A DNA stretch of 64,000 nt, taken from positions 2,368,001 through 2,432,000 of the forward strand of contig OZ241329.1 in the NCBI GenBank assembly GCA_965199825.1, read 5' to 3'. Of the stretch, positions 1 through 16,108 are shown in pieces. The first letter of the stretch is position 1, and each line of letters opens with the position of its first letter. The DNA comes from Bdellovibrionales bacterium (GTDB lineage: Bacteria; Bdellovibrionota; Bdellovibrionia; Bdellovibrionales; UBA1609). The notes under the pieces are model-generated. The model did not search any database and was not told the DNA's origin. It saw only the letters and a list, made by a program, of their open reading frames with translations. A program made the translations under genes and the position numbers.

Positions 1-160
1 AAACATCACTACACAAGTCCAGTATCCCCAACGCATCTTTTCATCATGCCATAAGCCTGACTTTTAAAGAGTATTGAATTATTTCGTATGTGCTTTTTCA
101 TGACTTTCGACTATATTAAAAATCCTAGGCTATTTAAGGCCAAGAAAGGAGGTGGTGCTA

Positions 161-208
161 ATGGTAGATTATGAACGCATACCAATGGCGGAGGTGAATG
201 CCATTTAA
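161..208 (+). CDS. Putative 15-aa small peptide MVDYERIPMAEVNAI (not in ORF track)
   Basis: ATG 161 to TAA 208; very strong SD AAGAAAGGAGGTG at 142-154, 6 nt upstream; followed by hairpins and an intrinsic terminator. Confidence 0.55.
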   Translation: MVDYERIPMAEVNAI

Positions 209-266
209 CCTCCATTGTTGGAGAAAGTGATTCATTCACTTTCGCCAGAGGTTATGACCGTTTCCC

Positions 267-298
267 GGCCAGGCTTGAAAAAGCCTGGCCTTTTTTTT
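267..298 (+). terminator. Intrinsic terminator
   Basis: Perfect 10-bp stem GGCCAGGCTT-GAAA-AAGCCTGGCC (267-290) then T8 on +; abuts the stop of the convergent ybbP-like gene. Confidence 0.9.
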
Positions 299-2657
299 AC
301 ATTAAATCTTTTGTCTGAACTCTTAAAGTTTGGCGTACAAAAAACAACAGCGGTAAACTAAATAAAATTAAATTAAGCAACGGCAAAAATTCATAAAGCT
401 GAAATTCAAAATTCCAAGGTGTTAAAAAAATCTTTTTAAGAACCAAATACGACATCCACCGCGCCGACATATTGGCAAAAAGATAGCTCAACAAAAATAA
501 AAATAAAAATTCAGTCAAAAGATAAAGGCGACGTTGATTTTGCGAGGCCCCAAAAGTTTCTAAAAGAGCCATTTCGGTTCTTCGCAATGAAAATGAAAAA
601 GATAAAATCATTGTGATTAGAATCGAGAGAAAAACTGCGACTCCAATTAAAAAATAAATTAACGGCTTTTTAATCTGTCGAAGCAAATCGCTCAAGCGCT
701 CAAGAATTTTTGCAATATCGATCACCGAAACCGCAGGATGCTTTTTTAACAATTGAGATTGAAATTGTTCCTTGCTCTGGCTGCCACGAGCTGTCCCAAT
801 CATCGAAAAAGGAAACCTTTCAAGTGTCCCTTTAGGAAACTGAATAAAAAAATTGGGTTGAAACTGATTCCATTCGATCGATCGAATTTGCGAAACCAAA
901 GCCTTTACTTCTTCACCCTGAAGCTCAAATTGTAATAGATCATTCAATTTAATATTGTTGCGTTTTGCAAACTCCAATTCGAGCGAGACCTGACCCTGTT
1001 TTATTTCGTTTGATCCTTCAAAAACAGATTCGGATCTTTTAAGCTTTGAGGATTCGGTCATGCGTAAAGGAAAACGTTTAAGCTGATCACTTTCCACCGG
1101 TTTATCATTTATTTTTTCGAGGCGCCCCAGGAATAACCGAGATGGATTTTCGAACTGACCACCGAGAGAGGTAACATCGGAAATGAGTTGATCCAGATCC
1201 TCTGGCTGAATGTTTGAGACAAAAAACTGAGGGGTCACCTCTGATTGGGGAGCAAGCTCTTTTTCGACCGCGCGACCAAAATGAAGAAGTAAAAGTTGAA
1301 CAAATAAAGCTGTGAAAAAAGTTTGGAACAAAAGGATATGACCACTTCTTGGCTTACTCAAGTTTCTGAGCGAGAGAAGAACAATTTTTTGTACTTGGAC
1401 CAAACCTAAACTAGTTTTTAAAAGCTTTGGAATGATCAAACATGAAAACAAAAGGGTGAGGCATTCAAAGCCAATAAAAAAGAGCAAATACATTTTATTT
1501 TCAAACCAAAACAGAGCGAGCCCAAATGAAAATAATAATCCGAGAGCCAAACTCATCAAGATTGGGGGTTGATCTTCTTGCTTTAAAAGCTGAAAAACCG
1601 AACGCGACTTCATCTCGATGAGATGTGCAGCCCAGATCCCAAGACATAAAATTAAACCCAGGATTTGCAACTTTAAGATAATCCCAAATTCAAAGTTCAG
1701 TGGCGTCAATACTGAAGTCATGATGAGTAAGACTGTCCCCATAAGCAAACTCAGTTGGACCGCTAAAAGAGCAAGGGTAAAAAGATAGCCTGCACGAGCG
1801 ATGCGCTTGACTCCGTAGCAGGTGAGAAGGCCTAAGAGCGCGCTTCGATTTTGTAGCAAAGTGTGAAGCGAATAAAAACTGACGATAAAACAAAGAACAC
1901 TTAAAAACATCACGGCCAAATCAACGATTTGAAGGGCGAAATTGAGTCCCTTTTCGATGGTCTTGACCGCATCTTGCTTTGTGCGAACAAAATATCCCCG
2001 TTTTTCAATTTCATTTTTTGTTTCTTGAGAGATCAGCGGACACAGATCATAGCGGCGGTAGTACACCAGACTCCCGGGCGCAATCAGGCCGGTTTTGATC
2101 AAGAGATCTTGCGAAAGAAAAAGAGGTTCAGCCGGTGAAAACCGAAACTGCTGAGAGCTTAAGTTTCGGTTGAGAGGTTGGTCCACTTTGACTTTTAAAT
2201 TCCCGACTTGAAGGATTTCGTCATGCTTGAGATCTAAATTTTTCCACAAATCAAGACTGACATTTAAATCCTTTTCAAAATGGCTTTTACCAATCAGTGG
2301 ATAATTTTTTGAAACTCCTTTGATTTCGGCAAGAGCAGACAGCTCTCCATGGGTCACATTGCTCACGAGTTCGATTACTAAAGCATGAGCCGTTGATTTT
2401 AAGATCTCTGTTAGCCATCCCTCATCCTGCGGCGACATCGGGCGTGTTGAGGTGATCTCCACATCGCCGCCTAAAATACTTTGGGCTTCGGACTCAATAG
2501 TGTGAACAAATGTGCTCTTCAGCATAAGGCTTAGGCCCAACAAAAATAATGCGGGCCCAAGACTTAAGATCACCATGTTGAGTCGTAAATAAGAATGAGA
2601 TAAATCTTTGAATATAAATTTAAAGTATTGAGCTATCGACAAGTGCGCCTTTTTCAA
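297..2657 (-). CDS. ybbP: FtsX-like ABC transporter permease (YbbP family)
   Basis: 786 aa with two TM clusters, LGGDVEI and FFVSNIQP motifs; downstream of ABC ATPase and TesA. Confidence 0.8.
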   Translation of the reverse strand: MKKAHLSIAQYFKFIFKDLSHSYLRLNMVILSLGPALFLLGLSLMLKSTFVHTIESEAQSILGGDVEITSTRPMSPQDEGWLTEILKSTAHALVIELVSNVTHGELSALAEIKGVSKNYPLIGKSHFEKDLNVSLDLWKNLDLKHDEILQVGNLKVKVDQPLNRNLSSQQFRFSPAEPLFLSQDLLIKTGLIAPGSLVYYRRYDLCPLISQETKNEIEKRGYFVRTKQDAVKTIEKGLNFALQIVDLAVMFLSVLCFIVSFYSLHTLLQNRSALLGLLTCYGVKRIARAGYLFTLALLAVQLSLLMGTVLLIMTSVLTPLNFEFGIILKLQILGLILCLGIWAAHLIEMKSRSVFQLLKQEDQPPILMSLALGLLFSFGLALFWFENKMYLLFFIGFECLTLLFSCLIIPKLLKTSLGLVQVQKIVLLSLRNLSKPRSGHILLFQTFFTALFVQLLLLHFGRAVEKELAPQSEVTPQFFVSNIQPEDLDQLISDVTSLGGQFENPSRLFLGRLEKINDKPVESDQLKRFPLRMTESSKLKRSESVFEGSNEIKQGQVSLELEFAKRNNIKLNDLLQFELQGEEVKALVSQIRSIEWNQFQPNFFIQFPKGTLERFPFSMIGTARGSQSKEQFQSQLLKKHPAVSVIDIAKILERLSDLLRQIKKPLIYFLIGVAVFLSILITMILSFSFSLRRTEMALLETFGASQNQRRLYLLTEFLFLFLLSYLFANMSARWMSYLVLKKIFLTPWNFEFQLYEFLPLLNLILFSLPLLFFVRQTLRVQTKDLM

Positions 2658-3297
2658 ACCTCAAATGACGATGACAAAATTGTATCATTTTTGGATCATG
2701 AGTGACCAATAACAAAGCCATCTTGAGCGGAGTCAAAATTGTGGTGAGCAACTTCAGAACATCGAGCGCGGTTTTTTGATCAAGACTTCCCGTGGGTTCA
2801 TCGGCCAATAAAATTTTTGGTTTTAAAATTAGGGCTCTTGCGATCGCAACTCTCTGACATTCGCCCCGAGACATTTGATGGGGGTAGTGATCCCTTCGCT
2901 TTTGAATATCAAGATCGTTAAGAAGTTCATTAGCAAAAGTCTGGTCTGAAATCCCTTTGAGCTGCAGTGGAAACAGAATGTTTTCGATAGCGGTCAAAAA
3001 AGGCAACAGATGAAATTGTTGAAAGATCATTCCAACAGTTTGGGACCGAAAGAGACTTAAATGATCCCCTTTAAGTTGGTTTAAATTTTTTTGAGATATT
3101 TTTACCTCACCGTGATCGGGCGAATCAAGTCCGTATAAAATCGAAAGCAGTGTGGACTTACCACAACCCGAGGGCCCCATGAGACTGACGAATTCAGCTT
3201 GTTGAACTTTAAGGTTGAGTGAATCAAGAATCTTTAATCCTGTAGGATGATCTTGAGACACATAGCTTTTTGAAATATTCGATGCTTCTAAAATCAT
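2620..3297 (-). CDS. ybbA: ABC transporter ATP-binding protein (YbbA/LolD-like)
   Basis: Walker A GPSGCGKST, signature-like MSRGECQRVAIARAL, ILLADEPTG, VTHD. Confidence 0.9.
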   Translation of the reverse strand: MILEASNISKSYVSQDHPTGLKILDSLNLKVQQAEFVSLMGPSGCGKSTLLSILYGLDSPDHGEVKISQKNLNQLKGDHLSLFRSQTVGMIFQQFHLLPFLTAIENILFPLQLKGISDQTFANELLNDLDIQKRRDHYPHQMSRGECQRVAIARALILKPKILLADEPTGSLDQKTALDVLKLLTTILTPLKMALLLVTHDPKMIQFCHRHLRFEKGALVDSSIL

Positions 3298-3890
3298 AAA
3301 AGTTTTTTTAAAGCCGGATAAAGATTTTTATAAATCACGTTGTGCCCTTGGGCATTGGGATGAAACCCGTCGGCTTGGTTTAACTCTTGATGTCCTGCAA
3401 CACCTTCGAGCAAAAAAGGAAAAAATGGGATCTGAAATTTTTTGGCGATGCGAGGATAAAGATCTTGAAAATCTTTGGCGTATTTTGGACCAAGATTGGG
3501 AAAGATTCGCATTCCAACAAGCAGCACTTTGACTTTATTTTGCTTTAATAGCTCGATGGTTTTTGTAATGTTCGATTCGATGATTTGAACCGCAGTGCCC
3601 TGGCGAGCATCGTTGCCTCCAATAGTTAAAACCACAAGATCAGGTTTATTTTGTTTGAGATAAAACTGAGCCCGAGAAAAAACCGATGAACTTAAGGCGC
3701 CACTTTCGGCCCCATTAACAATTTTAAATTCAGGCTTTTCGGTTTTTAGTTTTTGTTGAATTAAAAAAACAAAACTCTCGTCACGCGACACACCATAGCC
3801 TGCGGTCAATGAGTCGCCCAAAAACAAAATTTCTGAGGCAAACGAAGGCGTTACAATTAATAGAGCAAGAAGAGTGAGAGGTTTAAGCAT
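3294..3890 (-). CDS. tesA: Arylesterase / acyl-CoA thioesterase I (SGNH hydrolase)
   Basis: GDSL motif (FLGDSLTAGYG), GGND, DGFHPN; signal peptide from ATG 3890. Confidence 0.9.
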   Translation of the reverse strand: MLKPLTLLALLIVTPSFASEILFLGDSLTAGYGVSRDESFVFLIQQKLKTEKPEFKIVNGAESGALSSSVFSRAQFYLKQNKPDLVVLTIGGNDARQGTAVQIIESNITKTIELLKQNKVKVLLVGMRIFPNLGPKYAKDFQDLYPRIAKKFQIPFFPFLLEGVAGHQELNQADGFHPNAQGHNVIYKNLYPALKKLL

Positions 3891-3980
3891 AGAGTAAAAT
3901 TGATCACGATAAACTAGACCTTTCAAGCTTCATCAAAAAATGACTTGTCCAAGTGGTTTTGATTCTTCTACCATTTTGGT

Positions 3981-4044
3981 GTGGGGGGGCGATGTTTGGA
4001 AGGACACCTATCAGAGGCACGGAAGCTTCACATCGCCTTTTTTC
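3981..4044 (+). ncRNA. Candidate small hairpin RNA with GGA motifs (or attenuator)
   Basis: Stem GGCGATGT (3988-3995)/ACATCGCC (4030-4037) plus T tract; three GGA in the loop; TTGTCC-N18-TACCAT at 3945-3974. Confidence 0.3.
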
Positions 4045-4118
4045 TTGGTAAAAGCCCTTTTTTGCTCACACCCTGATTAACTCTTCAACAGATCAATATA
4101 AGCTCAGCCACCACCGCG

Positions 4119-4134
4119 TGGCGCTTGGCTTGCT
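4119..4134 (+). promoter_or_regulatory. Sigma-54 (-24/-12) promoter candidate
   Basis: TGGCGC-TTGGC-TTGCT versus consensus TGGCAC-N5-TTGC(A/T), exact GG-N10-GC spacing, 15 nt before ATG 4150. Confidence 0.65.
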
Positions 4135-4149
4135 CTTTTATAAATCAGT

Positions 4150-5694
4150 ATGAAAAGAGTCTCTTTACTTATTTTATTTATCCTAGGTTGCCAACAAAAG
4201 ACCGCTGTGGAATCGGGCAACTCCACCTTTGTGACCAAGGGCTTACCCTCTGTGGTTCAACCACTTGAAGAAAAAGAAGCTGCCACTCTGACTCCAACTT
4301 TCGTGAGCGAAGTAGCAAAGCCCCCAATTCAACCTTCCGCTCAACCTCATGTGACCAAAGAGCCAACAATTTTGGGCCTTACCAATCCAATGATTCTTCC
4401 TCCGCTCGGAAAACAAATTGAAGTGTTTGTCACATTCCAAACCACGGAATCTTCGGTAAGGCTGCACCTCCGTGGTGAGGTCAGCCCCTATCGCAATGGA
4501 CTGTTTGTTGGGGTGCTTTCGGATCCCTCTGAAATTAAAAGTCACCGGGTCAAAGCCATCGCCATCTGTCCAAATTCTATTTGCGATCATGTGATTGTGA
4601 ATCTGCATTACCTTGTGAATAACGAAATCAAAAACTTTCAGACCGAATGGTTTAAAAAAATTGAACCAGTCGAAATGACCGCGCCACCCGAACAGTCACC
4701 TCCAAATATAAATATCGCGGTGAGACCTGAAGAAGATGTGAACGAAGGTTCATTTTCTGAGCCCCCAAAAGGCTCCGTCGAAGAACAGGCCGAGCAGGGC
4801 GGTGGATATGTCTCGCTCGATCCCGAAAAGCTTGAGGGTTTTAAAACCGATTTGTTGCCTTTTACAGCACCTGTTCCAGCCACAATTCCGCACATTGAAA
4901 TTGCCAAAAAACATGAGCCTCCGGTCATCAATCTAAGGCCCGAAGTTGCAAAACCGTTAGATCCGATTCCAATTCCACCCCCGTTTGTTGAACCCCAAAA
5001 AGTGATTCAATCTTTGATTGAGGTCGCAACCAATCTGGTTGAAGGCGGGGAGGCCAGAAATTTTTATTTCAAAGCTGGCCAGATTATGGATGACAGTGTT
5101 TTGCCTGAGTCCGGAGTGGGCTTTGTTAAAACCACTCTTGAGCGCGATCGAAGGTATGGTTCAGGGTTGCTGGTTCAATTGATCATCGATTCGGCCAAAG
5201 CCTTTCGCACAGAGACCACCTATTCAGATAATGAATTATGGATTAGTGATATCTCGCAAAAAGGTGGCGGCGATATGCACCGCAGGGACTCGAGCAATCG
5301 TTTGATTAAGAATGATGCCCACCAAAATGGTTTAGATGTGGATATCGCTTATCTCAACCAAAATCCAAACTTTAATTTCCAGGTTGTGAATAATCAGGTG
5401 CTTCCCAATTTTGATTTTAAAAGGAATTTTGAATTTATGCGGCTGCTTGTAAAAACCAAAATGGTTGGATCTATTTTTGTCGATCCGCGTATCAAAAAGG
5501 GATTTTGTGGCTGGTTCAAACGAGAAATCCAAAATCCAACCGAGCTTGATCATGAAGTTCTAGAGCGAATGTATCATGTCGAGGGGCATACCAATCACTT
5601 TCATGTTCGGCTCAAATGCTCGCCAAATTATATCTTATGTGTGCCGCAAGGATTGAATGGCGATGGTCTTTTAAATAAAACCCCATGTAACTGA
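4150..5694 (+). CDS. Lipoprotein with C-terminal MepA-type penicillin-insensitive murein endopeptidase domain
   Basis: Lipobox ILGC; Pro-rich linker; HQNGLDVD and HTNHFHVRLKC zinc motifs of MepA family. Confidence 0.8.
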   Translation: MKRVSLLILFILGCQQKTAVESGNSTFVTKGLPSVVQPLEEKEAATLTPTFVSEVAKPPIQPSAQPHVTKEPTILGLTNPMILPPLGKQIEVFVTFQTTESSVRLHLRGEVSPYRNGLFVGVLSDPSEIKSHRVKAIAICPNSICDHVIVNLHYLVNNEIKNFQTEWFKKIEPVEMTAPPEQSPPNINIAVRPEEDVNEGSFSEPPKGSVEEQAEQGGGYVSLDPEKLEGFKTDLLPFTAPVPATIPHIEIAKKHEPPVINLRPEVAKPLDPIPIPPPFVEPQKVIQSLIEVATNLVEGGEARNFYFKAGQIMDDSVLPESGVGFVKTTLERDRRYGSGLLVQLIIDSAKAFRTETTYSDNELWISDISQKGGGDMHRRDSSNRLIKNDAHQNGLDVDIAYLNQNPNFNFQVVNNQVLPNFDFKRNFEFMRLLVKTKMVGSIFVDPRIKKGFCGWFKREIQNPTELDHEVLERMYHVEGHTNHFHVRLKCSPNYILCVPQGLNGDGLLNKTPCN

Positions 5695-5718
5695 AACATA
5701 ATATAACTTATAAACAAA
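5691..5718 (-). other. dif-like XerC/XerD recombination site
   Basis: Minus strand TTTGTTTATAA-GTTATA-TTATGTTTCAG keeps the ATAA-N6-TTATGT core of E. coli dif (GGTGCGCATAA-TGTATA-TTATGTTAAAT); almost entirely intergenic. Confidence 0.55.
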
Positions 5719-5766
5719 ACGAAACTGGACTTTTGTTTGTCTCTCTTCCTCTCTTAAAATTTAAAA

Positions 5767-6264
5767 ATGATTTTATCCCTCATACATTTACCTTCAGACC
5801 GCAAAGTTGAAGATGTCACAAAAGATGAGGCTAAAGCTCTGATCAAAATTCTAGGCACCGAACTTTTAAAGCAATGGTATATCGAGATCGATGCCAATAC
5901 TAAAATCCCCCTAACCCTTAAGTTTTTTGAAAACAGCATCGAAGAGCTTTCCGAAAAAACGGTTGAATTTGAGCTTGAATACACTCGTGTAGACCATCGT
6001 AAACAAAAAAGATTTGACCGGCAATTTCAGTTTTTGGCCTTAAGCCAAACCACGACCTTTGAAACCCAAACCGTAGATATCAGTAGTCGCGGCATTAAAC
6101 TACGTGAGCCGATACCCAGAGAGTTTCCTGAATACTTTGATGCCACCGTGGTCTTTGGGCTGGGGCAAAGTATTGACCTCAAAGTTCGATTAATCACACC
6201 TAAAAAGCTCCAGATTCTTGAGATCGACAATCCAGCGATCCTCAACCAATGGCTCTTAAAATGA
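5767..6264 (+). CDS. PilZ domain protein (putative c-di-GMP binding)
   Basis: RKQKR (RxxxR) and DISSRG (DxSxxG) motifs in the C-terminal half. Confidence 0.75.
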   Translation: MILSLIHLPSDRKVEDVTKDEAKALIKILGTELLKQWYIEIDANTKIPLTLKFFENSIEELSEKTVEFELEYTRVDHRKQKRFDRQFQFLALSQTTTFETQTVDISSRGIKLREPIPREFPEYFDATVVFGLGQSIDLKVRLITPKKLQILEIDNPAILNQWLLK

Positions 6265-6319
6265 GACACTTTTTGGCTTCTTCTTTTAATACGGGCATGA
6301 GCGATGGTAGACTTTAAGG

Positions 6320-7909
6320 ATGCGCATTGCTTTAGTACTCCCCTTGCTTCTCGTCGGTGTTTTGTTTGGCTACAATTCGTGTCAATCGGCGTTTCACGCC
6401 ATGGACATGTCATCCAGTGCAAGTTTGTGCGCAAAGCCGGTTCAGGCCAACCAGCGCTTTGCCCAAGCTAATCTCTCTCCCCTTCAAACAAAAAAAGTTT
6501 GGTTAAGTTCGCCAACTACAGCCAAGATGCGCGCTCAAAGTCAGGGGCTTACAGGTCTTACCGCTTTGATCGATGTGAGCTGTGTGCAAAATCGTAAAGT
6601 CAAAGCGCTTGCCGAAACGATTATTGGAACTTCGCAACTTCTAGGCTCCTTAGAACGCCAAGCCTTTCGTTTTTCGACACCGCTGAGCGAATCGGTTTTA
6701 ACCGCTCAAGCCAACGATGATGCCTGCATCATCGGAATCTCATTTGATCACGAGTACAAAAAAGCAAGTGTCAATTTGAATGACGCTGACTATAGTCAGC
6801 AGGCCCAACTCTTTTCGATGAATGCAGCTCAAGGCTATTCGCGTTTTTTTGATAGCACTTATGGAATATTGCCCGAAGGATCTGGCGCAAAAAACACCAT
6901 CGTCGCTGTGGTTGATTCAGGGGTTGATTATTCTCATCCCGATTTGAATTCAAACATTCTTCAGTTGAATCTTAGTGGAGGAAATGTGGGTTACGGCGTG
7001 GATGCCGCGACCATAGGATCAAATTTGGTAAACTATAATCCGATCGATGTTGATCCAGAAAGTCACGGCACTCATGTGTCGGGATTGGTCGCTGCAACAA
7101 CCGGAAATTCGATCGGAATTGTGGGTACTGCGCCGTCTCGCACACGTATTTTGGCAGTGCGGATATTTGATATCAACTCCTCAGGCGATACTGTTTCGAG
7201 TACAATCACCGCGGTCAATGGACTCGAGTTTGCGCGAGCAAACAATGCCGATGTGGTAAATTTAAGTATTGAGCAAAGCTATGCTGGGCCTTCAGCCACA
7301 AATCCTGATGCGGCCGGAGATGCCATTCTGCAAGATGAAATCCAAAAGCTGGTTTCTCAAGGAATAACTGTTGTGATGGCAATGGGAAATGCCACCGATA
7401 CGATTCCCGCGGGCGAAGTCGACGAAACGAGTTTAACCGTTGTGCCCGCCATTTATGCCAAGAATTCACCTGGAGTTATCGGTGTTGCAAGTGTGGACAC
7501 CAATTTAGTTAATGGTTTAACAATGCTGAGCTCATTTTCAAACTACGGTGTGAATTACGCAAAGATTGGATCTTATGGCGCCCAAAGCAGCCAAGGTTCG
7601 AACTTTGTGGGCGTGCTTTCAACCTTGCGTAATGGGACTTACGGAACTCTTGCCGGAACTTCAATGGCCACACCCGAGGTCTCGGCCGCGGTCTCTCTCG
7701 TTATTACTTTGATCCGAGATCGCACCGGCCACGCGCCGTCGCCCGCAGAGGTTGAACGCCTCCTGCTCCTCGGCAGTAAAAAGAACACGAATTTGGCAAG
7801 CGTGATCAAAGACGGAAATACATTGGATTTAGGTCTACTGTTTGATGCGGTCGCCAGAAATTATCCACAGACTGTTGATCCCGCTTATTTTGCAACACTC
7901 TGCCCATAA
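6320..7909 (+). CDS. Secreted S8 family (subtilisin-like) serine protease
   Basis: Catalytic triad motifs VAVVDSG, HGTHVSG, GTSMATP; N-terminal signal ending YNSC. Confidence 0.92.
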   Translation: MRIALVLPLLLVGVLFGYNSCQSAFHAMDMSSSASLCAKPVQANQRFAQANLSPLQTKKVWLSSPTTAKMRAQSQGLTGLTALIDVSCVQNRKVKALAETIIGTSQLLGSLERQAFRFSTPLSESVLTAQANDDACIIGISFDHEYKKASVNLNDADYSQQAQLFSMNAAQGYSRFFDSTYGILPEGSGAKNTIVAVVDSGVDYSHPDLNSNILQLNLSGGNVGYGVDAATIGSNLVNYNPIDVDPESHGTHVSGLVAATTGNSIGIVGTAPSRTRILAVRIFDINSSGDTVSSTITAVNGLEFARANNADVVNLSIEQSYAGPSATNPDAAGDAILQDEIQKLVSQGITVVMAMGNATDTIPAGEVDETSLTVVPAIYAKNSPGVIGVASVDTNLVNGLTMLSSFSNYGVNYAKIGSYGAQSSQGSNFVGVLSTLRNGTYGTLAGTSMATPEVSAAVSLVITLIRDRTGHAPSPAEVERLLLLGSKKNTNLASVIKDGNTLDLGLLFDAVARNYPQTVDPAYFATLCP

Positions 7910-8299
7910 CTCAGAGGGCAGATATTTTCGACATCCAACTTTTAAACCAATGTAATTTGTAAACTCATTTTGAATCTGCTGAGCGATCTGAAGTCCAAAG
8001 ACCTCTAAAGTTATTCTGTTTTAACTGGTTCTTTCTTTACTCTTCAAAATCTGATCAAGTGTCGGGGCATTAACAAGCTCACCCAAAAATAAACCTCGGC
8101 TAAAAAATTAAAACCTGAGCCAAATTTAGAAAATCCCAAATCACCAAAAAAATACTGGTATTTTTTTGGTTGGTCCAGTCGGGCCTTTTATATATGAGGC
8201 CAGAGCTAAAATGAGCCCCGTGAGAGTGATAATAGATGCTTCATTCGTTAGCATGTTTATTGACTGCGCTTCAATGTTGATAAAAACTGGGAGGACTTT

Positions 8300-9130
8300 A
8301 TGCACATGATTTTTTTTCTCCTTTTTTCGGCCTTGAGCATTGCTGCAGATTTGCAGTCGATGTGCGCAGATCAAATGGCCTCGCTCAAAGGCTTAAAGCC
8401 CGACGGCGACTACAAAAAATTATGTGCCCAAGCCAAAACGGTTGATCCTTGCCAGTCTGAAAACGGCAGTCCGATTTATTTCTTTGATTATATTTCTCAA
8501 GAAAAAAACGCCAAACGCATTTTGGCTCTGTCGTTAATCCATGGAGATGAAGAGCAAAGTGGAACGGTCACTCGTGCATGGATCTCACGGCTGGCCAACA
8601 TTAGCCCGCGCAATTCGTGGCGGGTGATTCCAATCGCAAATCCCGATGGATTTAAAAAGAAAACCCGCACCAATTCTAACAAAGTAGATATCAATCGTAA
8701 TTTTCCAACAGATGATTGGGAAAAAACCGCGCTTTCAATTTGGCGGACCAAACTTCACTCAGACCCACGCCGATTTCCTGGGCCCACCTCGGCAAGCGAA
8801 AAAGAAACCAAATGTTTGATGCATCAGTTTGAGGATTTTAAACCTGACTTTATTATCTCGGTTCATACCCCATTGGGACTGCTTGATTTTGACGGCCCCA
8901 AAGTCGGCTCACCTGATTTTAATCCGTTACCCTGGATCTCGCTTGGAAACTATCCTGGATCGATTGGGCGTTACATGTGGCGTGATAAAAAAATTCCTGT
9001 TTTAACAATCGAGCTTAAAGGAAATACCGGCGTTCAACGCCTTGAGCATTTTGATATGCTCCAAGATATTGCAGGCACGGTAGCCATTCAGGCCCATCGT
9101 TTACTTGAATCAGGCCGCAAAAAAGATTAA
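8300..9130 (+). CDS. M14 zinc carboxypeptidase, MpaA-like murein peptide amidase
   Basis: HGDE, ANPDG, DINRNFP, ISVH and terminal TIE motifs; signal peptide; GGGAGG SD. Confidence 0.82.
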   Translation: MHMIFFLLFSALSIAADLQSMCADQMASLKGLKPDGDYKKLCAQAKTVDPCQSENGSPIYFFDYISQEKNAKRILALSLIHGDEEQSGTVTRAWISRLANISPRNSWRVIPIANPDGFKKKTRTNSNKVDINRNFPTDDWEKTALSIWRTKLHSDPRRFPGPTSASEKETKCLMHQFEDFKPDFIISVHTPLGLLDFDGPKVGSPDFNPLPWISLGNYPGSIGRYMWRDKKIPVLTIELKGNTGVQRLEHFDMLQDIAGTVAIQAHRLLESGRKKD

Positions 9131-9141
9131 ATTTTATTTGT

Positions 9142-9534
9142 TTAGTTAAGGTCCCATACCTGAAAGCCGCGATTTAGGGCTTCGGGCAGGTCTTGTTTTA
9201 AAATTAAATAGCGGTTGGCGATTCCGGTTGAAAAATTACATGTGCTGGATCTTGGGAACTCGTCCGATTTTTTTTCGCTAGCAAAAACCCGAATGCCGTT
9301 AAGCTCTTTTTGCATCGTTAAGACTGTGACGCCATCATAGGTGCCGCAAAAAACTGAACCGTCATATTTGTAGATCCAAACTTTGTCTTGATCTAAATCT
9401 TGGGGTTTATCTTGAAAGGCTTCTTCTGGCGAAATCACACGCTCATTAGAGAAATCCTGATTTTGTCTCCGGCACTCATTACTTCCGCAGGAAATAAAAA
9501 AACATAAAAATGGAATTACAATTTTTCGTGCCAT
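9142..9534 (-). CDS. Hypothetical lipoprotein
   Basis: Lipobox-like FISC; overlaps end of bamB-like gene. Confidence 0.6.
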   Translation of the reverse strand: MARKIVIPFLCFFISCGSNECRRQNQDFSNERVISPEEAFQDKPQDLDQDKVWIYKYDGSVFCGTYDGVTVLTMQKELNGIRVFASEKKSDEFPRSSTCNFSTGIANRYLILKQDLPEALNRGFQVWDLN

Positions 9535-10670
9535 GAGAATTCTCGCCGTGTTGGAACTTTTGCCAATCGAAGCGCAAACAAGTTGGCTTCTGACGACATA
9601 AAATACACTTCATTTCGAGATTCATCCACAGCAAGCGACGAATTGACACCGCGACCTGGCGCAAAGTCAGTAACAAGATCCCCGTTGGCTAGATTAAGGG
9701 CTTTAAGATCTCCACTAAACTCACCAACCAAAAGCATATTTTTAAATAGCACCGGCCGAGTCGCAATATGTGCGGTGGGCTTACTCCACACCACAACTCC
9801 GGTGAGTTTTTCCACCGCCAAAACTTTTGAAGCTGATGTGGTGTAGTACAATCGCTTTCCTTCAATCACCGGAGTAGTAAAACCTCCATCATCGTGGCTC
9901 CAAATCACATGCCCGTTATGAGCGTCTAAAGAATAAAGCCCGCCATCATAGCTCGTCACATATAAATGATCGTCATCGATCACCACGCCGGCATCGACAT
10001 CGCGAAATCTCTTATTAATATTAATTGCGGTTTCCCACTCCAGCTGACCGTTTGAGCGATTGAGTGCGACCACATAACCATCACTAAACCCGAGGTAAAC
10101 AAATTTATCGGTCACGGTAGGCTTAGAGCCTCCACGAATCGAAAGTGCTGAGGTGTCTCTGCGGTTGTAGAGCCAAATTTGCTGACCCGATTCGGCATCC
10201 AGTGCAAAGGCCACATTGTTGCCCGCCAAAAAATAGATCACACCCTCATGGTACGTGGGCTCACTTAATCCCTCCGAATGAATTTCAAATTTCCATTTGA
10301 GTGATCCATCATCAGCATCAAGAGCATAAAAATAACCATCGTTTGCACCAAAATAAATCACACGATGAGCAAGCTGGGCCCCGCCTTCAACCCCGCCCTT
10401 TAAAGCTCGGCTCCAAATGACGTCGCCATTCACACGGGAAAGGCATTGAATGCCGTCGATCCCATTTCCTTGATACACGTATTTTTCGGTTAAGAGCGGA
10501 GTCATCCGGTGCAGACGACGCGAACCCACAAAAGGTTTAATAAGAGTACTTCGGACCCAGCGCTTTTCGAACAGGGGCTTTTCGCGCTCGGCTGAAGTTT
10601 GAAGAAGTGCACATCCGTTAAGAATGCTCAGACACAAAACATAAAATAGAGGTATTTTCACCCTCTTCAA
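9516..10670 (-). CDS. bamB: PQQ-like beta-propeller lipoprotein, BamB-like
   Basis: Lipobox LNGC; repeated ALD..G...W blades; downstream of YfgM-like gene as in yfgM-bamB. Confidence 0.75.
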   Translation of the reverse strand: MKRVKIPLFYVLCLSILNGCALLQTSAEREKPLFEKRWVRSTLIKPFVGSRRLHRMTPLLTEKYVYQGNGIDGIQCLSRVNGDVIWSRALKGGVEGGAQLAHRVIYFGANDGYFYALDADDGSLKWKFEIHSEGLSEPTYHEGVIYFLAGNNVAFALDAESGQQIWLYNRRDTSALSIRGGSKPTVTDKFVYLGFSDGYVVALNRSNGQLEWETAININKRFRDVDAGVVIDDDHLYVTSYDGGLYSLDAHNGHVIWSHDDGGFTTPVIEGKRLYYTTSASKVLAVEKLTGVVVWSKPTAHIATRPVLFKNMLLVGEFSGDLKALNLANGDLVTDFAPGRGVNSSLAVDESRNEVYFMSSEANLFALRLAKVPTRREFSWHEKL

Positions 10671-11341
10671 GTGCCCTGAAGTTGGATCAAACGCAAATAA
10701 TTTTTGGCTTGGGCTGCAGCTTCGCTCTCGGCAAACTCAGTTGCAATCCGTGAGTAATAGGATTTGGCTTGATCCATCTGCCCCTGTTTTTGGGCACAAA
10801 GTCCCATGCGCAAAAGAATCTCACTCATCATAAACTGGGCTTCAGAAGTTGAAAGCAAACTTTGATAATGGGCTAGGGCTGCCGCAAAATTATTTTGGGC
10901 CGCGAGTAAATTTGCAATCTGCATCTGAGCCAAAATTACAAGAAGATCGCCAGATCGTTTTTTTTCCACCGCTTGCTCGAGAACATTTTGGGCTTCTGCC
11001 AATTTGTTTTCGCTCATCAGATAATCGGCCAAGCTCATCGCCGTACCCAACGCCGCTTTGGTCGTCTTATTTTTTATGATAACCGCTTTTAAATCCTCAA
11101 CCACAGGTTTGATTTCTTTATCGAAATCGGGCTTTTTATCATGCTGATCGCGCAGCTTATTCAGGCGATCTTCCACCGCAAATATCGCCTCGCGCGCTTT
11201 GATTTCCTGAGAATTGTCATACCAGTTGTAGGTAAAGTATCCGATACCTCCCACAAAACCGGCAATTAAAACTCCGGCGATCCACAGTTGATATTTTAAA
11301 ATTTCGGCGACAAAGCGTGAGGCAAAATCATTTTCTTCCAT
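10667..11341 (-). CDS. YfgM-like membrane-anchored TPR protein
   Basis: N-terminal TM helix then TPR repeats; synteny with bamB. Confidence 0.7.
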   Translation of the reverse strand: MEENDFASRFVAEILKYQLWIAGVLIAGFVGGIGYFTYNWYDNSQEIKAREAIFAVEDRLNKLRDQHDKKPDFDKEIKPVVEDLKAVIIKNKTTKAALGTAMSLADYLMSENKLAEAQNVLEQAVEKKRSGDLLVILAQMQIANLLAAQNNFAAALAHYQSLLSTSEAQFMMSEILLRMGLCAQKQGQMDQAKSYYSRIATEFAESEAAAQAKNYLRLIQLQGT

Positions 11342-11372
11342 TAAAAAACCTTAAAAGTGGTGGTTCACAAAG

Positions 11373-12491
11373 TCAACGTGAGCGATTGCGCATTTCTTTA
11401 AGAGTAGAAAAGGGTCGAGATGTTCGGCCTTGATAATGTTGGCGAAGAGATCCAATTTTGCTCAATCTTTTCTCTGCCAAGCGGTCGGCAGCGAGCTGGG
11501 TGCTAATGTTATCTTGTTTAGATATTCTAAATACATTTAAAAGATTATCAAAAACTTGGGCCGTTTTCTCGAATGCTCTGTCGGCCGAGTAACCTTCAAG
11601 TTCAACAAACACATTCATCAATCCACCCGCATTAATCACATAATCAGGCGCATAGAGAATTCCGATCTCACGCAGGTGATCGGCATGTCGAAATTCGGCG
11701 AGCTGATTATTGGCTCCACCCGCAACAACTTTACATTTCAATTGGGGCAAAGTTTTATCATTAATCACCGAGCCCATTGCACAGGGAGCAAAAATATCGC
11801 ATTCGGTTTTGATGATCGATTCGTGATCGGTCACTTGAACATTATATTTTTGCGAGATGTACGAGGCCTTTTCAGAATCAATATCGGCAACAATCAATTC
11901 CGCCCCTGCTTTGTGCAGATCATCCACTAAGTGCGAACCCACACTCCCCAATCCTTGCACCGCAATTCGCAAACCATGAAGATCGCTTGCGCCCAGTTTT
12001 TCAAGAGCTGCGGCCTTGATGCCCATCATCACTCCCCTAGCGGTATACGGTGAAGGATCACCTGATCCGCCAAAATTAGATGGAATTCCTGTGACAAAGG
12101 GGGTTTCCATAAAAATATATTCCATGTCACGCACTGTGGTGCCCACATCTTCGGCGGTGATATATTTGCCGCCCAAAGAATTAATAAAGGCACCAAACCC
12201 GCGAAAGAGGGCTTCCGATTTGTGTTTTTTTGGATCGCCCAAGATCACCGCTTTACCGCCACCAAGGTTGAGCCCTGCGGTTGCCGCTTTGTAGGTCATC
12301 CCTTTTGAAAGTCTTAAGACATCAACCAGTGCGTCTTGCTCATTGGCATAAGGCCACATCCGAAGTCCACCGAGTGCCGGTCCAAGTGTGGTGTTGTGGA
12401 TTGCGATGATCGCTTTAAGACCAATGTCTTTATTGTGACAATAAATAACTTCTTCGTGTCCGCCATGATTTTCGATCAATTCAAATGTCAT
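11373..12491 (-). CDS. ldh: Leucine (Glu/Leu/Phe/Val) dehydrogenase
   Basis: LGPALGGLRM, GGGKAVI, TAEDVGT, QGLGSVG, GGANNQL, APDYVINAGG. Confidence 0.93.
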   Translation of the reverse strand: MTFELIENHGGHEEVIYCHNKDIGLKAIIAIHNTTLGPALGGLRMWPYANEQDALVDVLRLSKGMTYKAATAGLNLGGGKAVILGDPKKHKSEALFRGFGAFINSLGGKYITAEDVGTTVRDMEYIFMETPFVTGIPSNFGGSGDPSPYTARGVMMGIKAAALEKLGASDLHGLRIAVQGLGSVGSHLVDDLHKAGAELIVADIDSEKASYISQKYNVQVTDHESIIKTECDIFAPCAMGSVINDKTLPQLKCKVVAGGANNQLAEFRHADHLREIGILYAPDYVINAGGLMNVFVELEGYSADRAFEKTAQVFDNLLNVFRISKQDNISTQLAADRLAEKRLSKIGSLRQHYQGRTSRPFSTLKEMRNRSR

Positions 12492-12537
12492 AGTTTTTCT
12501 CCAAAAGGCCAACGTAGACCAGGTGAGGTTCGCGACT

Positions 12538-13026
12538 TCAAGATTTAAATTTTAATGCGAAACACAAAATCAACAAAACGGTGTAAAGCGCAAATGCTAT
12601 TTTCCCGCGCTGGACCGATTTCTTGAGATGCTTCAATTCAGTTTCGAATTGATCACGCTGGATTTTGAAGTCTTCATTTAAATGAGTTTTTACCGGATTG
12701 GCCACGCTCATATTGTGATGTGGGTCAAAGACCGGGTACTTGTCGATCACGATCAAATACCACTGAAGCGCCTTATATATATGGGGTGGAATTTTAGACT
12801 CATCCTTCATCCAGCGCGTCCATGCCGAGGGATCAATCAACAAAATCTGACACATTTTTCTGCGACTGATTGAGAGTCGTTCGCGAACCGAATCCAGTGT
12901 GCCCATTTCCTTTCGTAAGACCCGAGCTTCAGCTTCATATTTTAATCTCAGCGAAGTTTTGAGCCGATTTTGGTTTGAATCTGCTTGTGAAGACTCGTCT
13001 TTGGTCGGAATGAAATCCATTTCCAT
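12538..13026 (-). CDS. Hypothetical protein: XRE/Cro-like HTH, coiled coil, C-terminal TM anchor
   Basis: LDSVRERLSISRRKMCQILLIDPSAWTRW fits an HTH; C-terminal hydrophobic IAFALYTVLLILCFAL; GAGGA SD. Confidence 0.65.
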   Translation of the reverse strand: MEMDFIPTKDESSQADSNQNRLKTSLRLKYEAEARVLRKEMGTLDSVRERLSISRRKMCQILLIDPSAWTRWMKDESKIPPHIYKALQWYLIVIDKYPVFDPHHNMSVANPVKTHLNEDFKIQRDQFETELKHLKKSVQRGKIAFALYTVLLILCFALKFKS

Positions 13027-13037
13027 TCGTTATCCTC

Positions 13038-13086
13038 GTTGTGAAACACAATGTTGATGTTGTGATTCACTTTAAATCAAGTTGTG
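13038..13086. repeat. Three phased GTTGTG direct repeats
   Basis: GTTGTG at 13038, 13059, 13081 (spacing 21 and 22 bp); first overlaps palindrome TTGTG-AAA-CACAA. Confidence 0.5.
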
Positions 13087-13181
13087 TAATACCATTGTTC
13101 ACATATTCGATTTTAAATTACAAATTTTTATATTTTTATGAAGTTTGACCCCTATGTGGACCTTGCCTAGTTTCGAAATCG

Positions 13182-13209
13182 AGTGTAACTTATATACATA
13201 AGTTACATA
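13182..13209. repeat. Palindromic site (recombination core or operator)
   Basis: AGTGTAACTTA-TATACA-TAAGTTACATA; perfect 10-bp IR TGTAACTTAT/ATAAGTTACA at 13184-13207. Confidence 0.75.
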
Positions 13210-13347
13210 GCTAAGTATCTGAAATCACATAGGTTTAGGAAGGGTGCTTGTGATCTTTTAATATTGGTTACAGCTCTTGGGGGTCCAAACGCGATGTATA
13301 ACAACAAATTCTATTTAGTTAAAAATCACTCGTGAGGTTGATGCAAC

Positions 13348-13875
13348 ATGGCTAGAATTCAGCGCTACGCTTTAAATAAAAATAAGTATCTGCTCGAAAC
13401 CGAGCGCGAACGGCTCGAATATCTTCTCAAATCTCGGCTCATTTCTGATGCACGAAACTGCTCGCTTTTGCTCACGGGTCTTCATACAGGTGCCCGCGCA
13501 CTCGAAATTTTAAATCTGAAATGGGACGACTTAAATCTCAATGACGAAACTGTTTTTATCCGCGGAATTAAAAATTCCAATGATCGAGAAATTCCTTTAC
13601 CCCGTTGGTTTTTTCGCGATTTACAAAAGATAGAACGTCACAATGAAATGATCTTTCCGATCTCTTACAATCGGCTGCGACAGATCTGGCATCTTTATCG
13701 GCCGGTTCATAAAAAGTTTCATTGCCTCCGCCACACCTTTGCCATTCGCCTTTATCAAAAAACAAAAGACATTCGACTTGTTCAAGTGGCGCTGGGTCAC
13801 CGCAGTATTACCAACACCATGATCTATGCGGACTATATTTATTCGCGCGAGGAATTAAGAAAACTAATTCTTTAA
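13348..13875 (+). CDS. Short tyrosine recombinase (catalytic domain only, FimB/FimE-like size)
   Basis: 175 aa with R (TGAR), K (GIK), HCLR, LGH and Y (TMIY) catalytic residues; no N-terminal core-binding domain; GAGG SD. Confidence 0.9.
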   Translation: MARIQRYALNKNKYLLETERERLEYLLKSRLISDARNCSLLLTGLHTGARALEILNLKWDDLNLNDETVFIRGIKNSNDREIPLPRWFFRDLQKIERHNEMIFPISYNRLRQIWHLYRPVHKKFHCLRHTFAIRLYQKTKDIRLVQVALGHRSITNTMIYADYIYSREELRKLIL

Positions 13876-13926
13876 AAACTTTTTCATCATGCTAGACTTT
13901 TTTTGGATCAACGAGGGGGACTACAT

Positions 13927-14613
13927 TTGTTGCGCATTTTTTTAAAGCTGAGCATCTTGGGTTTTATCTTTAGCTCTTCGGCCTTTTCGGCCACACCTCA
14001 GATATTTTATGATTTACCAAAAGTGGCTGCGGTCCAAAACCGATCTTACTATCTCAATCACGAGTTTGCTCTGCAGCTTGGAACTCTTCCATCAGATGCC
14101 TTTAATAAGGGATATTTGCTAGGCGGAGTTTATACCTATTATTTTAGTGAATATCTCGGCTGGGAAGTGGCAAACGCCAATTATTCGGTCAATGCCGAAA
14201 CCAGCCTGAAGCGAGATCTGGTGGATAACTTTGGAGCTCAAGTTCAGAGCCAAGGATTTGGTGGAGTTCTTGATTACATCACTTACTTTGTAACAACAAA
14301 TTTAGTTTATACTCCTTTTTATACCAAGAGCTTGCTGTTTAATCGCAGTGTGATCCATGGGGAGCTTAGCTTTATTGCGGGTGCCGGTGCGGCCAATTTT
14401 AAAAATACCGGAATTAAACCCTTGGTCTCGCTGGGTGTAGGACTAAGATTTTTTACCTCCCCTTCGCACTCGATCAAACTTGATTTAAGAAACAATGTTT
14501 ACTTTGAAAGCTCGCTCGGTGCGGTCAATGCACTTTCAATCACCGCGGGCTATGCGTGGCAGTTAGGAAAACCACCTTTAAAACCACTCCAGATTGAAGG
14601 TGAAAATGAGTAG
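13927..14613 (+). CDS. Outer-membrane beta-barrel protein, GltA/B/H-like
   Basis: Signal peptide, AVQNR motif, alternating beta-strand pattern; first gene of Glt-like cluster; SD GAGGGGG at 13913 favours TTG 13927/13930 over 13903. Confidence 0.7.
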   Translation: MLRIFLKLSILGFIFSSSAFSATPQIFYDLPKVAAVQNRSYYLNHEFALQLGTLPSDAFNKGYLLGGVYTYYFSEYLGWEVANANYSVNAETSLKRDLVDNFGAQVQSQGFGGVLDYITYFVTTNLVYTPFYTKSLLFNRSVIHGELSFIAGAGAANFKNTGIKPLVSLGVGLRFFTSPSHSIKLDLRNNVYFESSLGAVNALSITAGYAWQLGKPPLKPLQIEGENE

Positions 14614-16108
14614 CCTCTTTTTTTTATTTATGAGCCTTTTGAGTGCTGAGCCACAAAGTGGAAAAACCACCGATATTGCCTTTATTCGTGATCGACCAAA
14701 ACCCTTTACTTATCGTCCGGTTAATAACCGCTATTGGGAGCGCGTTCAAACTCACCTCAAAGAAAACAATCCTCTTTTTATTTTGCAAGAAGCGCACGAG
14801 CAACAAAAGACCTATGGATTTACCTCGACTGAGAGCCAAGAATCTCATTTGGCTGAAGCGATTGGTCTTAAAAAACTCTCTTTTTCTTATGCCTCATTTG
14901 TTATTCTCCTCAATCTCGCCCAAACAAAAATGGGAACCAATATTGGCGAGGCCGCACTTTTTGAACTTGAAGATTTAGCCCTTCATTATTCAATAGATGA
15001 ATCTCAACTCGAGTCTTTTTTAAATCAGAATGAATTTGCCGACGCCCATCACGATATTGTGAGTTTTATTAACTATTATAAAGGACTTCATAATCTTCGT
15101 TACGGTTATAAAAAATGGGCCGAACCAAGTCTGTCAGGAATTAATCCAGCATCGCCGTGGTCACTTCAACTCAACTACTGGACCGCCATGGGTGAGGTGG
15201 CCCGCGGCCGTATGGACAAAGCCTTTGAGATGCTTAGAACTTTAAATACCTCAGCCAATATTCCACAAAATCTGCAGAATATGGTTAAGCTTCAACTTGC
15301 ACGAATCTATTTTGAAAAAGGACTTTTCCAAGAAGCCGAAAGTTTTTATCAAGATGTTGGCGATATGGGCTTGCGTGAGCATGGCCGAATCCTTTTAGAA
15401 CGAGCATGGACGGCATATTATCTCAAAAATTTTTCGCAAGCCCTAGGGTGGCTCACCGCTTTAAAAAGTTCGACCTTTGATTCTTCCTTAACTCCTGAGC
15501 GCTACATTCTCGAAATGGTGATCTTAAGAGATCTGTGTCACTTTCCTGGAGTCGAAATTGTGGCTAAAGCTTTTGAAAAAAAATTTCGTCATACCTTAAG
15601 TGTGATTCGTAAGCGTGGAAGTCTGCGCGAAGAGCGAACATTATTTTCGATGGCCACATTGAACCGGGACCTCCAACCTCAAGCCAATCTGGTCGATCAA
15701 CTTCGTAAAGAGCGTGATCGATTTCAGCGCGCCGGAATGCAAAAGTTTTTGTTCTTTGATGACGCTTTAGATGAATACAAAAAGCGCGATAAAATTTTAA
15801 CCGCCAATCTTGAGCCACGACTCGAAAATTTCGCACGCAAATCGGCAGAGTCGGTTTTGGATTCCGAAGAGCAAATTCAATTTTTGCAGTATCAAAGTAA
15901 ACTTGATGCTTTGAGAATTATTAAAGCGGATGAAGACCGGGCTTATCGTGCCGAAAAAGTGAGCCATGTGGCATTTCAAAAACTCTACTGGCCGGTCGAA
16001 AAAGAATTTTGGCTTGAAGAGCAAAATGATTATCGCGTTTTGATATCGAGCCGCTGCGGTACTAATGCAACTCCTGAAGATCTTAAACTCGAAAGAAAGT
16101 TTCGCTAA
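14606..16108 (+). CDS. GltC-like TPR protein
   Basis: TPR segments (LARIYFEKG, LERAWTAY), LRDLCHF, C-terminal LYWPVEKEFWLEE..DYRV...SRC resembling GltC. Confidence 0.65.
   Translation: MSSLFFLFMSLLSAEPQSGKTTDIAFIRDRPKPFTYRPVNNRYWERVQTHLKENNPLFILQEAHEQQKTYGFTSTESQESHLAEAIGLKKLSFSYASFVILLNLAQTKMGTNIGEAALFELEDLALHYSIDESQLESFLNQNEFADAHHDIVSFINYYKGLHNLRYGYKKWAEPSLSGINPASPWSLQLNYWTAMGEVARGRMDKAFEMLRTLNTSANIPQNLQNMVKLQLARIYFEKGLFQEAESFYQDVGDMGLREHGRILLERAWTAYYLKNFSQALGWLTALKSSTFDSSLTPERYILEMVILRDLCHFPGVEIVAKAFEKKFRHTLSVIRKRGSLREERTLFSMATLNRDLQPQANLVDQLRKERDRFQRAGMQKFLFFDDALDEYKKRDKILTANLEPRLENFARKSAESVLDSEEQIQFLQYQSKLDALRIIKADEDRAYRAEKVSHVAFQKLYWPVEKEFWLEEQNDYRVLISSRCGTNATPEDLKLERKFR

Follow-up and report, generated by a model that had tools for sequence, protein, structure and literature searches.

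The window analysed here is a stretch of 64,000 nucleotides from a Bdellovibrionales bacterium (assembly GCA_965199825.1, contig OZ241329.1), and close to its beginning, between a divergent 210-aa ORF (window 1-36) without a Pfam or NCBIfam match and a convergent tesA/ybbA/ybbP-like operon (window 297-3926), lies a predicted small RNA gene with the following features:

112..117, plus strand: putative -10 box TATATT; many homologues have a similarly placed TAnnnT box
124..298, plus strand: predicted transcript of about 172-175 nt, fold z -6.55, 5' end inferred at about 124-127
128..141, plus strand: 5' hairpin P1, predicted structure
143..156, plus strand: first Shine-Dalgarno sequence (SD1), able to pair with the 3' end of this genome's 16S at 12 Watson-Crick positions, or 14 counting one G-U
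161..208, plus strand: 15-codon ORF from ATG to TAA, frame kept across the family
190..197, plus strand: second Shine-Dalgarno sequence (SD2, GGAGGTGA), whose first G precedes the stop by 16 nt
186..247, plus strand: predicted helix P3 (186-200/233-247), burying SD2; inside it lie the stop codon and, at 210-223, an apical hairpin
148..265, plus strand: predicted closing helices 148-156/257-265 and 178-183/250-256, covering the 3' part of SD1
267..298, plus strand: predicted intrinsic terminator, 10-bp stem (267-290) and U8
297..2657, minus strand: convergent YbbP-like ABC permease gene, outside the element, after ybbA-like and tesA-like genes

All motifs named in an earlier sequence-only reading of this locus were found in the window sequence where that reading had placed them: AAGAAAGGAGGTG at 142-154 (plus strand), the ORF at 161-208 (plus strand) encoding MVDYERIPMAEVNAI followed by a stop, GGAGGTG at 190-196, ACCTCC at 208-213, TAACCTC at 206-212, GAGGTTA at 248-254 and TATATT at 112-117. 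The TATATT was not picked up by a consensus promoter scan, and its assignment as a -10 box rests on its position in homologues. The 5' end was placed at about 124-127 because the mapped 5' end of APsRNA2, the Bdellovibrio bacteriovorus homologue discussed below, falls at the start of the 5' hairpin. At the other end, the stop codon of the ybbP-like gene overlaps the terminator U tract of the small RNA. Upstream, a CCATAA at window 48-55, found in 11 of 72 members from the order at 70-100 nt ahead of SD1 (background 1.7% per 100 nt), is weakly suggestive of a possible regulator site.

The single 16S gene of this genome ends ...GGATCACCTCCTTTCT, and the 12-nt complement of this end has just two occurrences in the whole genome, one at 143-154 and the other in the 16S gene itself, read from its reverse strand; likewise, AGAAAGGAGGTG occurs twice in the 2.84-Mb genome, at this locus and in the 16S 3' end read from the reverse strand. 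Assuming the mature 16S end, the SD1-16S duplex was calculated at -23.1 kcal/mol compared to a best value of -17.3 among the candidate SDs of 1,957 long ORFs, making the 14-bp match stronger than that before any of these ORFs. The purines at 142-147 are predicted to be unpaired, and the ATG lies 5 nt past the duplex. Since the match stops at 12 nt, we rejected the reading of SD1 as a remnant of a 16S tail. Outside the window, the sole other AAAGGAGGTG besides the 16S tail (G000:C1:375260) precedes an ORF that we take to resemble ribosomal protein L10.

The homologue search by BLASTN that the sequence-only reading had proposed yielded four relatives (E 2e-6 to 2e-4) among 60 genomes. A pattern consisting of SD1 and ATG only matched in 92 of 201 genomes of the order, giving 99 matches compared to 17 for the reversed control; 94 of the 99 matches and one blastn locus were read, and 83 were kept by eye as family, the 12 loci set aside comprising 11 with other ORF lengths and one of 18 codons without 5' hairpin or SD2. 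Three members (L565, L567, and L570) carry GGGGG in place of GGAGG within SD1, a substitution that still allows G-U pairing to the 16S tail. From 73 members we derived a sequence model (R1). Of 111 genomes of the order it matches 87, as a single copy in 86 of them, and it finds one strong place in the genome of the window. The window, which is part of the training set, scores 48 bits on R1, and a held-out locus (L240), whose SD1-to-SD2 stretch is identical to the printed APsRNA2, scores 42 bits. Moreover, 20 model matches missed by the pattern were read, and all 20 have SD1, a start codon and an ORF of 13-21 codons, 18 of them with SD2, a test that is not fully independent since the model favours SD2.

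Outside the order, a stricter pattern matched in three of 168 genomes of the phylum, two of these matches being of a different, 42-43-codon type and one being judged noise from its matched letters alone. The different element (L398, L399, and L400; G334:C107 and G311:C2, two copies) occurs in another Bdellovibrionota family and is unmatched by R1; in it, an anti-SD copy precedes an extended SD and then a basic ORF of 42-43 codons, a layout that recalls SD-sequestered type I toxin mRNAs. A global scan of 185,579 species genomes with the pattern SD1-ATG-N(20-38)-GGAGGT-N10-TAR gave at least 117 loci (about 160 estimated), and among the matches listed, many of which are close kin, 25 are Bdellovibrio-like, three are from Oligoflexia, 84 are from Chloroflexota, including Tepidiformaceae, Thermomicrobiales and others, and five remain. 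In an even sample of Chloroflexota only six of 121 genomes matched, two of those not being family, suggesting that in this phylum the RNA is either patchy or too diverged for the pattern to match. R1, whose training set came from the order only, recovered four of four Chloroflexota and six of six metagenome members at E <= 2e-4 in a small search. In viral sequences, the loose pattern gave 93 distinct matches without a length peak like that of the family and the strict pattern gave three, none of them family by eye; no phage record matched the window, and a plasmid search with a GC-rich member gave weak partial matches only. Eight of the viral loci (L132, L181, L197, L232, L218, L524, L526, and L529) have tiny Lys/Gly-rich ORFs behind a very strong SD, and these phage-contig ORFs are 11-17 aa long and mostly end in Cys.

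The genes adjoining the family members fall into 157 clusters, and the downstream gene lies on the same strand at 101 loci, is convergent at 48 and is lacking at 11 (n=160). Synteny is seen at the level of lineages (L271-L345, Tepidiformales-type, and L050-L118), with a lipoate/biotin-ligase-family gene downstream at 30 loci, yceD downstream at 20, rpsB divergent at 14 and a cheA-like gene at six. The gene is thus real, conserved and stand-alone, and has no common neighbour. The sequence-only reading had proposed a self-contained transcript without a downstream gene to act on, and both points are borne out, as the homologue has been mapped as a small RNA (PMC3627812), the adjoining gene is convergent and the neighbours vary; the SD and the ORF frame proved to be conserved across the homologues as well.

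The region 122-298 folds at -73.9 kcal/mol (z -6.55), with none of 200 shuffles equally good, into a predicted rod plus terminator. Its dominant 15-bp helix (186-200/233-247, each pair with p >= 0.98) and its closing helix (148-156/257-265, p 0.75-0.94) were both absent from the sequence-only reading, which had considered, among other roles, a structural switch in which ACCTCC pairs with either SD or TAACCTC pairs with GAGGTTA. In the full-length RNA these pairings are negligible at equilibrium (p of 7e-6 for ACCTCC-SD1, 3e-3 for ACCTCC-SD2 and 2e-4 for TAACCTC/GAGGTTA), and ACCTCC at that place is not family-wide, so that this specific switch finds no support. The ACCTCC-SD1 pairing is predicted to form transiently, with p 0.89-0.97, while the growing RNA extends to 216-234. 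In toxin mRNAs of the aapA3/hok type, the SD is covered first by transient and then by long-range 3' pairing. According to the folding model, SD1 of the window may share this behavior, being covered transiently and then over a long range, whereas the window peptide, unlike those of aapA3/hok-type mRNAs, is short, polar and unconserved. Peptides of the family lack the hydrophobic membrane character of type I toxins (GRAVY median -0.29 over 219 ORFs of 13-22 aa), in agreement with the sequence-only reading, which had considered such a toxin unlikely.

The 5' hairpin folds at -3 kcal/mol or lower in 70 of 73 members from the order compared to 43% of shuffles, and 16 relatives show two-sided changes in four of its six pairs; it was not seen by eye in Chloroflexota members. 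In the same 16 relatives the helix equivalent to P3 is 97% paired, with one of nine pairs changing on both sides, and in Bdellovibrio relatives the 3' half of SD1 does not form the closing helix but is paired to the centre of the ORF. Overall, 97% of cells are paired in the 16 Bdellovibrio-type sequences and five of 21 pairs show two-sided change, four of them in the 5' hairpin, while in 20 Tepidiformales-type sequences a helix joining the ORF to post-stop sequence shows two-sided change in five of 12 pairs; these counts, read from two sets (16 and 20 sequences) picked for similar length, are inflated by the relatedness of the sequences. RNAalifold gave no consensus on a 73-sequence MAFFT alignment because the stems are misaligned in it. 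The burial of SD2 averages 0.80 compared to 0.69 in the shuffle control and exceeds 0.5 in 160 compared to 170 of 189, hence selection for burial is not clearly above the control (n=189). When a ribosome was modelled at the stop codon, the cost of opening SD1 rose from 12.6 to 15.7 kcal/mol in the window RNA, and SD1 became harder to open in 45 of 73 members and easier in 13; since a ribosome at the stop does not ease the opening of SD1 in this model, it argues against a simple re-initiation loop.

What the sequence-only reading had missed is the fixed distance of SD2 to the stop codon, together with the resemblance of the RNA to the known rre kind. The first G of SD2 lies at -16 in 37, at -13 in 20 and at -12 in 21 of 83 members, and at -16 it is 13 nt before the last sense codon, which equals the SD1-to-ATG spacing. 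Depending on the frame, the letters of SD2 are read as EV, E or GG (Glu-Val, Glu or Gly-Gly), indicating that what is conserved is the nucleotide motif and its spacing from the stop, and not the residues. The SD2 duplex of the window was calculated at -15.4 kcal/mol, equalled by one of 1,957 pre-stop windows, and 60 of 73 SD2s are among the strongest 5% of pre-stop windows of their genome, even though the search pattern had not required SD2; a control stretch 20 nt upstream gave a median of -3.0 kcal/mol. The pairing partner of SD2 (n=192) lies after the stop in 115 cases, between SD2 and the stop in 29 and upstream in 12, with no partner in 33 and no SD2 in three, and this variation suggests that the stop codon, rather than the helix, is the anchor of SD2. 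SD2 is missing or weakened in some members (two of the 20 held-out members, and L073).

The reading frame is kept as well. Among the global matches listed, the stop is in the frame of the ATG in 117 of 117, with only six of the 19 allowed gap lengths being in frame, and the in-frame stop is the first stop in 116; six different ORF lengths occur among these matches, all of them multiples of three. Scanning metagenomes for the -13 class, with about half of the loci from one soil lineage, gave 92 of 107 in frame, 85 of them as first stop, compared to 11 of 31 gaps in frame. The pattern without SD2 or stop gave 14-19 codons in 84 of 95 matches read, where a hand calculation from base composition predicts about 14%, the family matches being kin and not independent. 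In contrast to the frame, the amino acids show no sign of selection, as pN/pS is 0.81 in 73 disjoint pairs and differences at codon positions 1, 2 and 3 number 113, 120 and 131 in the same pairs. Since structural constraint on the RNA at every position would likewise bring pN/pS close to 1, a lineage-specific role of the peptide stays compatible with these values.

In B. bacteriovorus, APsRNA2 was described as a 134-nt RNA with a mapped start site and no marked FliA promoter, with an RPKM of 8,869 in attack phase compared to 204 in growth phase, a 43-fold increase, and it was reported as non-coding, without function and without homologues outside this species (Karunker et al., 2013, PMC3627812). 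The printed sequence of APsRNA2 contains the 5' hairpin, SD1, a 15-codon ORF, SD2 at -16 and an anti-SD2 strand, and the strain record (L330) equals it except for the last base when compared by eye. On these sequence features APsRNA2 is a homologue of the RNA of the window, which has a longer 3' domain. Arithmetic on the ratios in PMC3627812 puts APsRNA2 at about 1% of the tmRNA signal and about 3% of the SRP RNA signal. Among contigs from four RNA runs, one run has deep short contigs confined to the Bdellovibrio homologue (depth about 2,000-18,000 compared to 25 next door), another has short contigs starting at the 5' end of the RNA and two have no such stack; contigs of this kind give neither ends nor levels and are a weak hint for a homologue transcript. 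Two other attack-phase RNAs published as non-coding, merRNA and APsRNA5, have a short ORF (12 and 29 codons, respectively) behind a strong SD when read by eye from Figure S1 of PMC3627812. In the open literature searched, APsRNA2 was not found beyond PMC3627812, and in the open-access literature searched an RNA with two SDs and a mini-ORF is undescribed for Bdellovibrionales and unlinked to APsRNA2.

So far, the closest described RNAs are the rre RNAs, which the account in PMC5711450 reports from Alphaproteobacteria only and whose function is unassigned since 2016. Of these, rreB has 165 nt, 14 codons, a 17-nt SD and a GTG start, co-sediments with 30S and is weakly translated, and changing its start to a stop codon increased its half-life from 10 to 37 min (Hahn et al., 2016, PMC5711450). 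The rre RNAs and the window RNA have in common a stand-alone RNA of about 165 nt with an extended SD, a 14-18-codon ORF and a terminator, as well as a genomic context that is not conserved across clades, and the single-stranded 5' seed of the SD with its 3' part in a helix, a feature of rre, is predicted for the window RNA too. On the other hand, rre requires at least 16 nt of perfect 16S complementarity and its GTG start provides with its first base the end of the SD duplex (ATG in Azospirillum), whereas the window has 12 nt (14 with G-U) and an ATG beyond the duplex. Measured against the 16S of this genome, SD1 of 73 members forms 8-13 Watson-Crick pairs, 11-16 with G-U, while rre-like loci reach 17 nt by the same measure; a GTG start occurs in five of the 20 held-out members, the family being mostly ATG. 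The window family further differs from rre by its 5' hairpin (in Bdellovibrionales), by the strong SD2 at a fixed distance to the stop and by its presence in other phyla. SD2 is not mentioned in the text of PMC5711450, whose alignment figures may show one, and GAGGT lies 12 nt before the stop in three of six rre-like loci.

The six rre-like loci are unmatched by R1 at E <= 1 and score 42-52 bits on CC2171 (RF01867), a Caulobacter sRNA family whose consensus opens with an extended SD and GUG and has a helix joining the early ORF to the terminator base; CC2171 was confirmed by Northern blot in Methylorubrum (10.1101/2022.01.24.477521). No CC2171 match was found on the window (E <= 10) or at the locus in the genome, and the best family score on this model is 24.1 bits, well below the gathering cut-off of 75; the second-listed CC2171 match (19.3 bits, E 0.078), the best in its genome, is a Tepidiforma family member. 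In the Rfam check that the sequence-only reading had asked for, the window matched no described family, giving weak terminator-driven matches only at E <= 10; 20 family loci gave no gathering match, and 20 more gave no family match at E < 0.1. Without the 16-17-nt/GTG hallmark and without an Rfam match, the window RNA is best seen as a variant of the rre kind; by its sequence layout it is rre-like, and shared descent with rre is not established. Among other candidates, Ms_IGR-5 (RF02471, cut-off 45 bits) has no match in this genome and weak matches off the family loci in four others, and 6S RNA is accounted for by an RF00013 match elsewhere (C1:826544-826716, 61 bits). A tmRNA called by ARAGORN in the same genome (G000:C1:1424503-1424869) has an odd 31-residue tag, probably due to a mis-set reading frame. 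A sponge of the CsrB/RsmZ type is unlikely, as the GGA motifs are predicted in stems or linkers and not in hairpin loops; the CsrA sponge considered by the sequence-only reading is further disfavored by the distribution of CsrA, which was found in three of five genomes tested (this one and two of Bdellovibrionota type) and had no match in the two Chloroflexota carriers.

We propose that the RNA most likely acts by being translated and not via its peptide, as a stand-alone, rre-like mini-mRNA, a reading by analogy to which we assign a probability of about 50%. The very strong SD1, the unconserved peptide and the position of SD2 just before the stop suggest that the RNA is likely to work by loading and briefly holding a ribosome. 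In this model, the exposed purines would be the landing site of the 30S subunit, which would unzip the 14-bp SD1; initiation and the escape from the long SD duplex would both be slow, and the translating ribosome would unwind the helix hiding SD2, which could then grip the ribosome again at the stop codon during termination. An SD 9-14 nt before the stop was shown to slow mRNA release 50-fold in vitro with splitting unchanged (Chen et al., 2017, PMC5737721), and since the splitting rate was unaffected, the hold by SD2 would be short. That study used an in-vitro model and dealt with attenuator leaders or coupled operons, whereas the window RNA is stand-alone. With such a renewed grip, the RNA would be let go only once the ribosome has been split, making its lifetime dependent on translation, its decay would be coupled to translation, and the build-up in attack phase might follow from low translation at that stage. 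By analogy, we infer that the behavior of rreB and the in-vitro kinetics of an SD near the stop extend to the window RNA.

Another possibility, unlikely in our view though worth serious attention, is that the RNA is a throttled mRNA for a functional, lineage-specific micropeptide, Ser-rich and often with His/Cys near the N terminus, whose low or conditional dose is set by the SDs and helices. The kept frame and length of 13-22 codons, the Ser content (16% of residues) and the S-H-S/C-like starts recurring in three lineages would fit this, as would the clade-conserved RreB and RreR peptides and the weak translation of rreB (PMC5711450). The pN/pS of 0.81 and the flat codon-position profile speak against it, however, as do the recurring residues, which use fixed codons paired in helices (Ser as AGT in 239 of 548, and the covarying Tepidiformales helix), the C-terminal motif, which changes frame, and RreB, which is unstructured and without effect upon putative overproduction (PMC5711450). 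A further candidate is an RNA that acts in trans and is gated by translation, with the ribosome freeing the post-stop strand or a processed piece for targets or with the GGAG motifs soaking up anti-SD sRNAs or CsrA, although a reading frame is not something that a sponge requires. The covarying helices clamping the ORF to post-stop sequence, the ORF-containing product of about 60 nt from rreB (PMC5711450) and the presence of CsrA in the Bdellovibrionota-type genomes are compatible with such a role, but the part 3' of the stop codon varies in length (37-236 nt to the predicted terminator end in the 58 of 73 members with a terminator found) and has no shared seed, and with CsrA lacking a match in both Chloroflexota carriers and the GGA motifs placed in stems or linkers, we consider it improbable.

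A store or sponge parking 30S or 70S ribosomes in the starving attack-phase cell until prey entry would account for the strongest SD in the genome (against 1,957 long ORFs), the 43-fold increase of the homologue in attack phase (PMC3627812) and the co-sedimentation of rreB with 30S (PMC5711450). Bulk sequestration, which the sequence-only reading had also entertained, is at odds with the level of APsRNA2, which at about 1% of tmRNA and about 3% of SRP RNA is far below ribosome numbers, and with a 20-fold excess of rreB that left growth unchanged and led its authors to reject a sponge role (PMC5711450), so that this explanation appears quite remote. Least probable is a leader-peptide attenuator or riboswitch for a downstream gene. 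SD-like motifs near leader stops have been described for attenuators (PMC5737721), and the lineage synteny with the lipoate/biotin-ligase-family gene (30 loci) and yceD (20 loci) could be taken in its favor; yet the downstream gene is convergent here and at 48 of the 149 loci having one, different lineages have unrelated neighbours, regulatory codons do not occur in a run, and in one family yceD has its own TTGACA box after the terminator.

Returning to the mini-mRNA that acts by being translated, it is tempting to extend this reading to rre/CC2171, APsRNA2 and the Chloroflexota RNAs as one ancient cross-phylum class of housekeeping mini-mRNAs, a wider proposal that we regard as speculative and rather unlikely. 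Each RNA would serve as a test track for the ribosome, with an over-strong entry SD, structured coding sequence of about one footprint and an exit SD forcing recycling by splitting first, and its occupancy or decay would report the capacity for initiation and recycling, helping to set the switch between growth and dormancy (the attack phase in Bdellovibrio).

In conclusion, if the preferred reading is true, a gene that occurs in about four-fifths of the order's genomes and also in a distant phylum would be selected for its ribosome-handling signals and not for its protein, and would thus represent a little-known kind of functional RNA. It would also be a natural case of an SD before a stop codon without a downstream gene, in which the in vivo effect on termination and recycling may be tested. 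The ORF of APsRNA2 and its homologues, absent from the account given in PMC3627812, are recognised here, and APsRNA2 as a member of the translated type would bring this RNA into a genetically tractable organism in which it shows a sharp on/off pattern over the life cycle.
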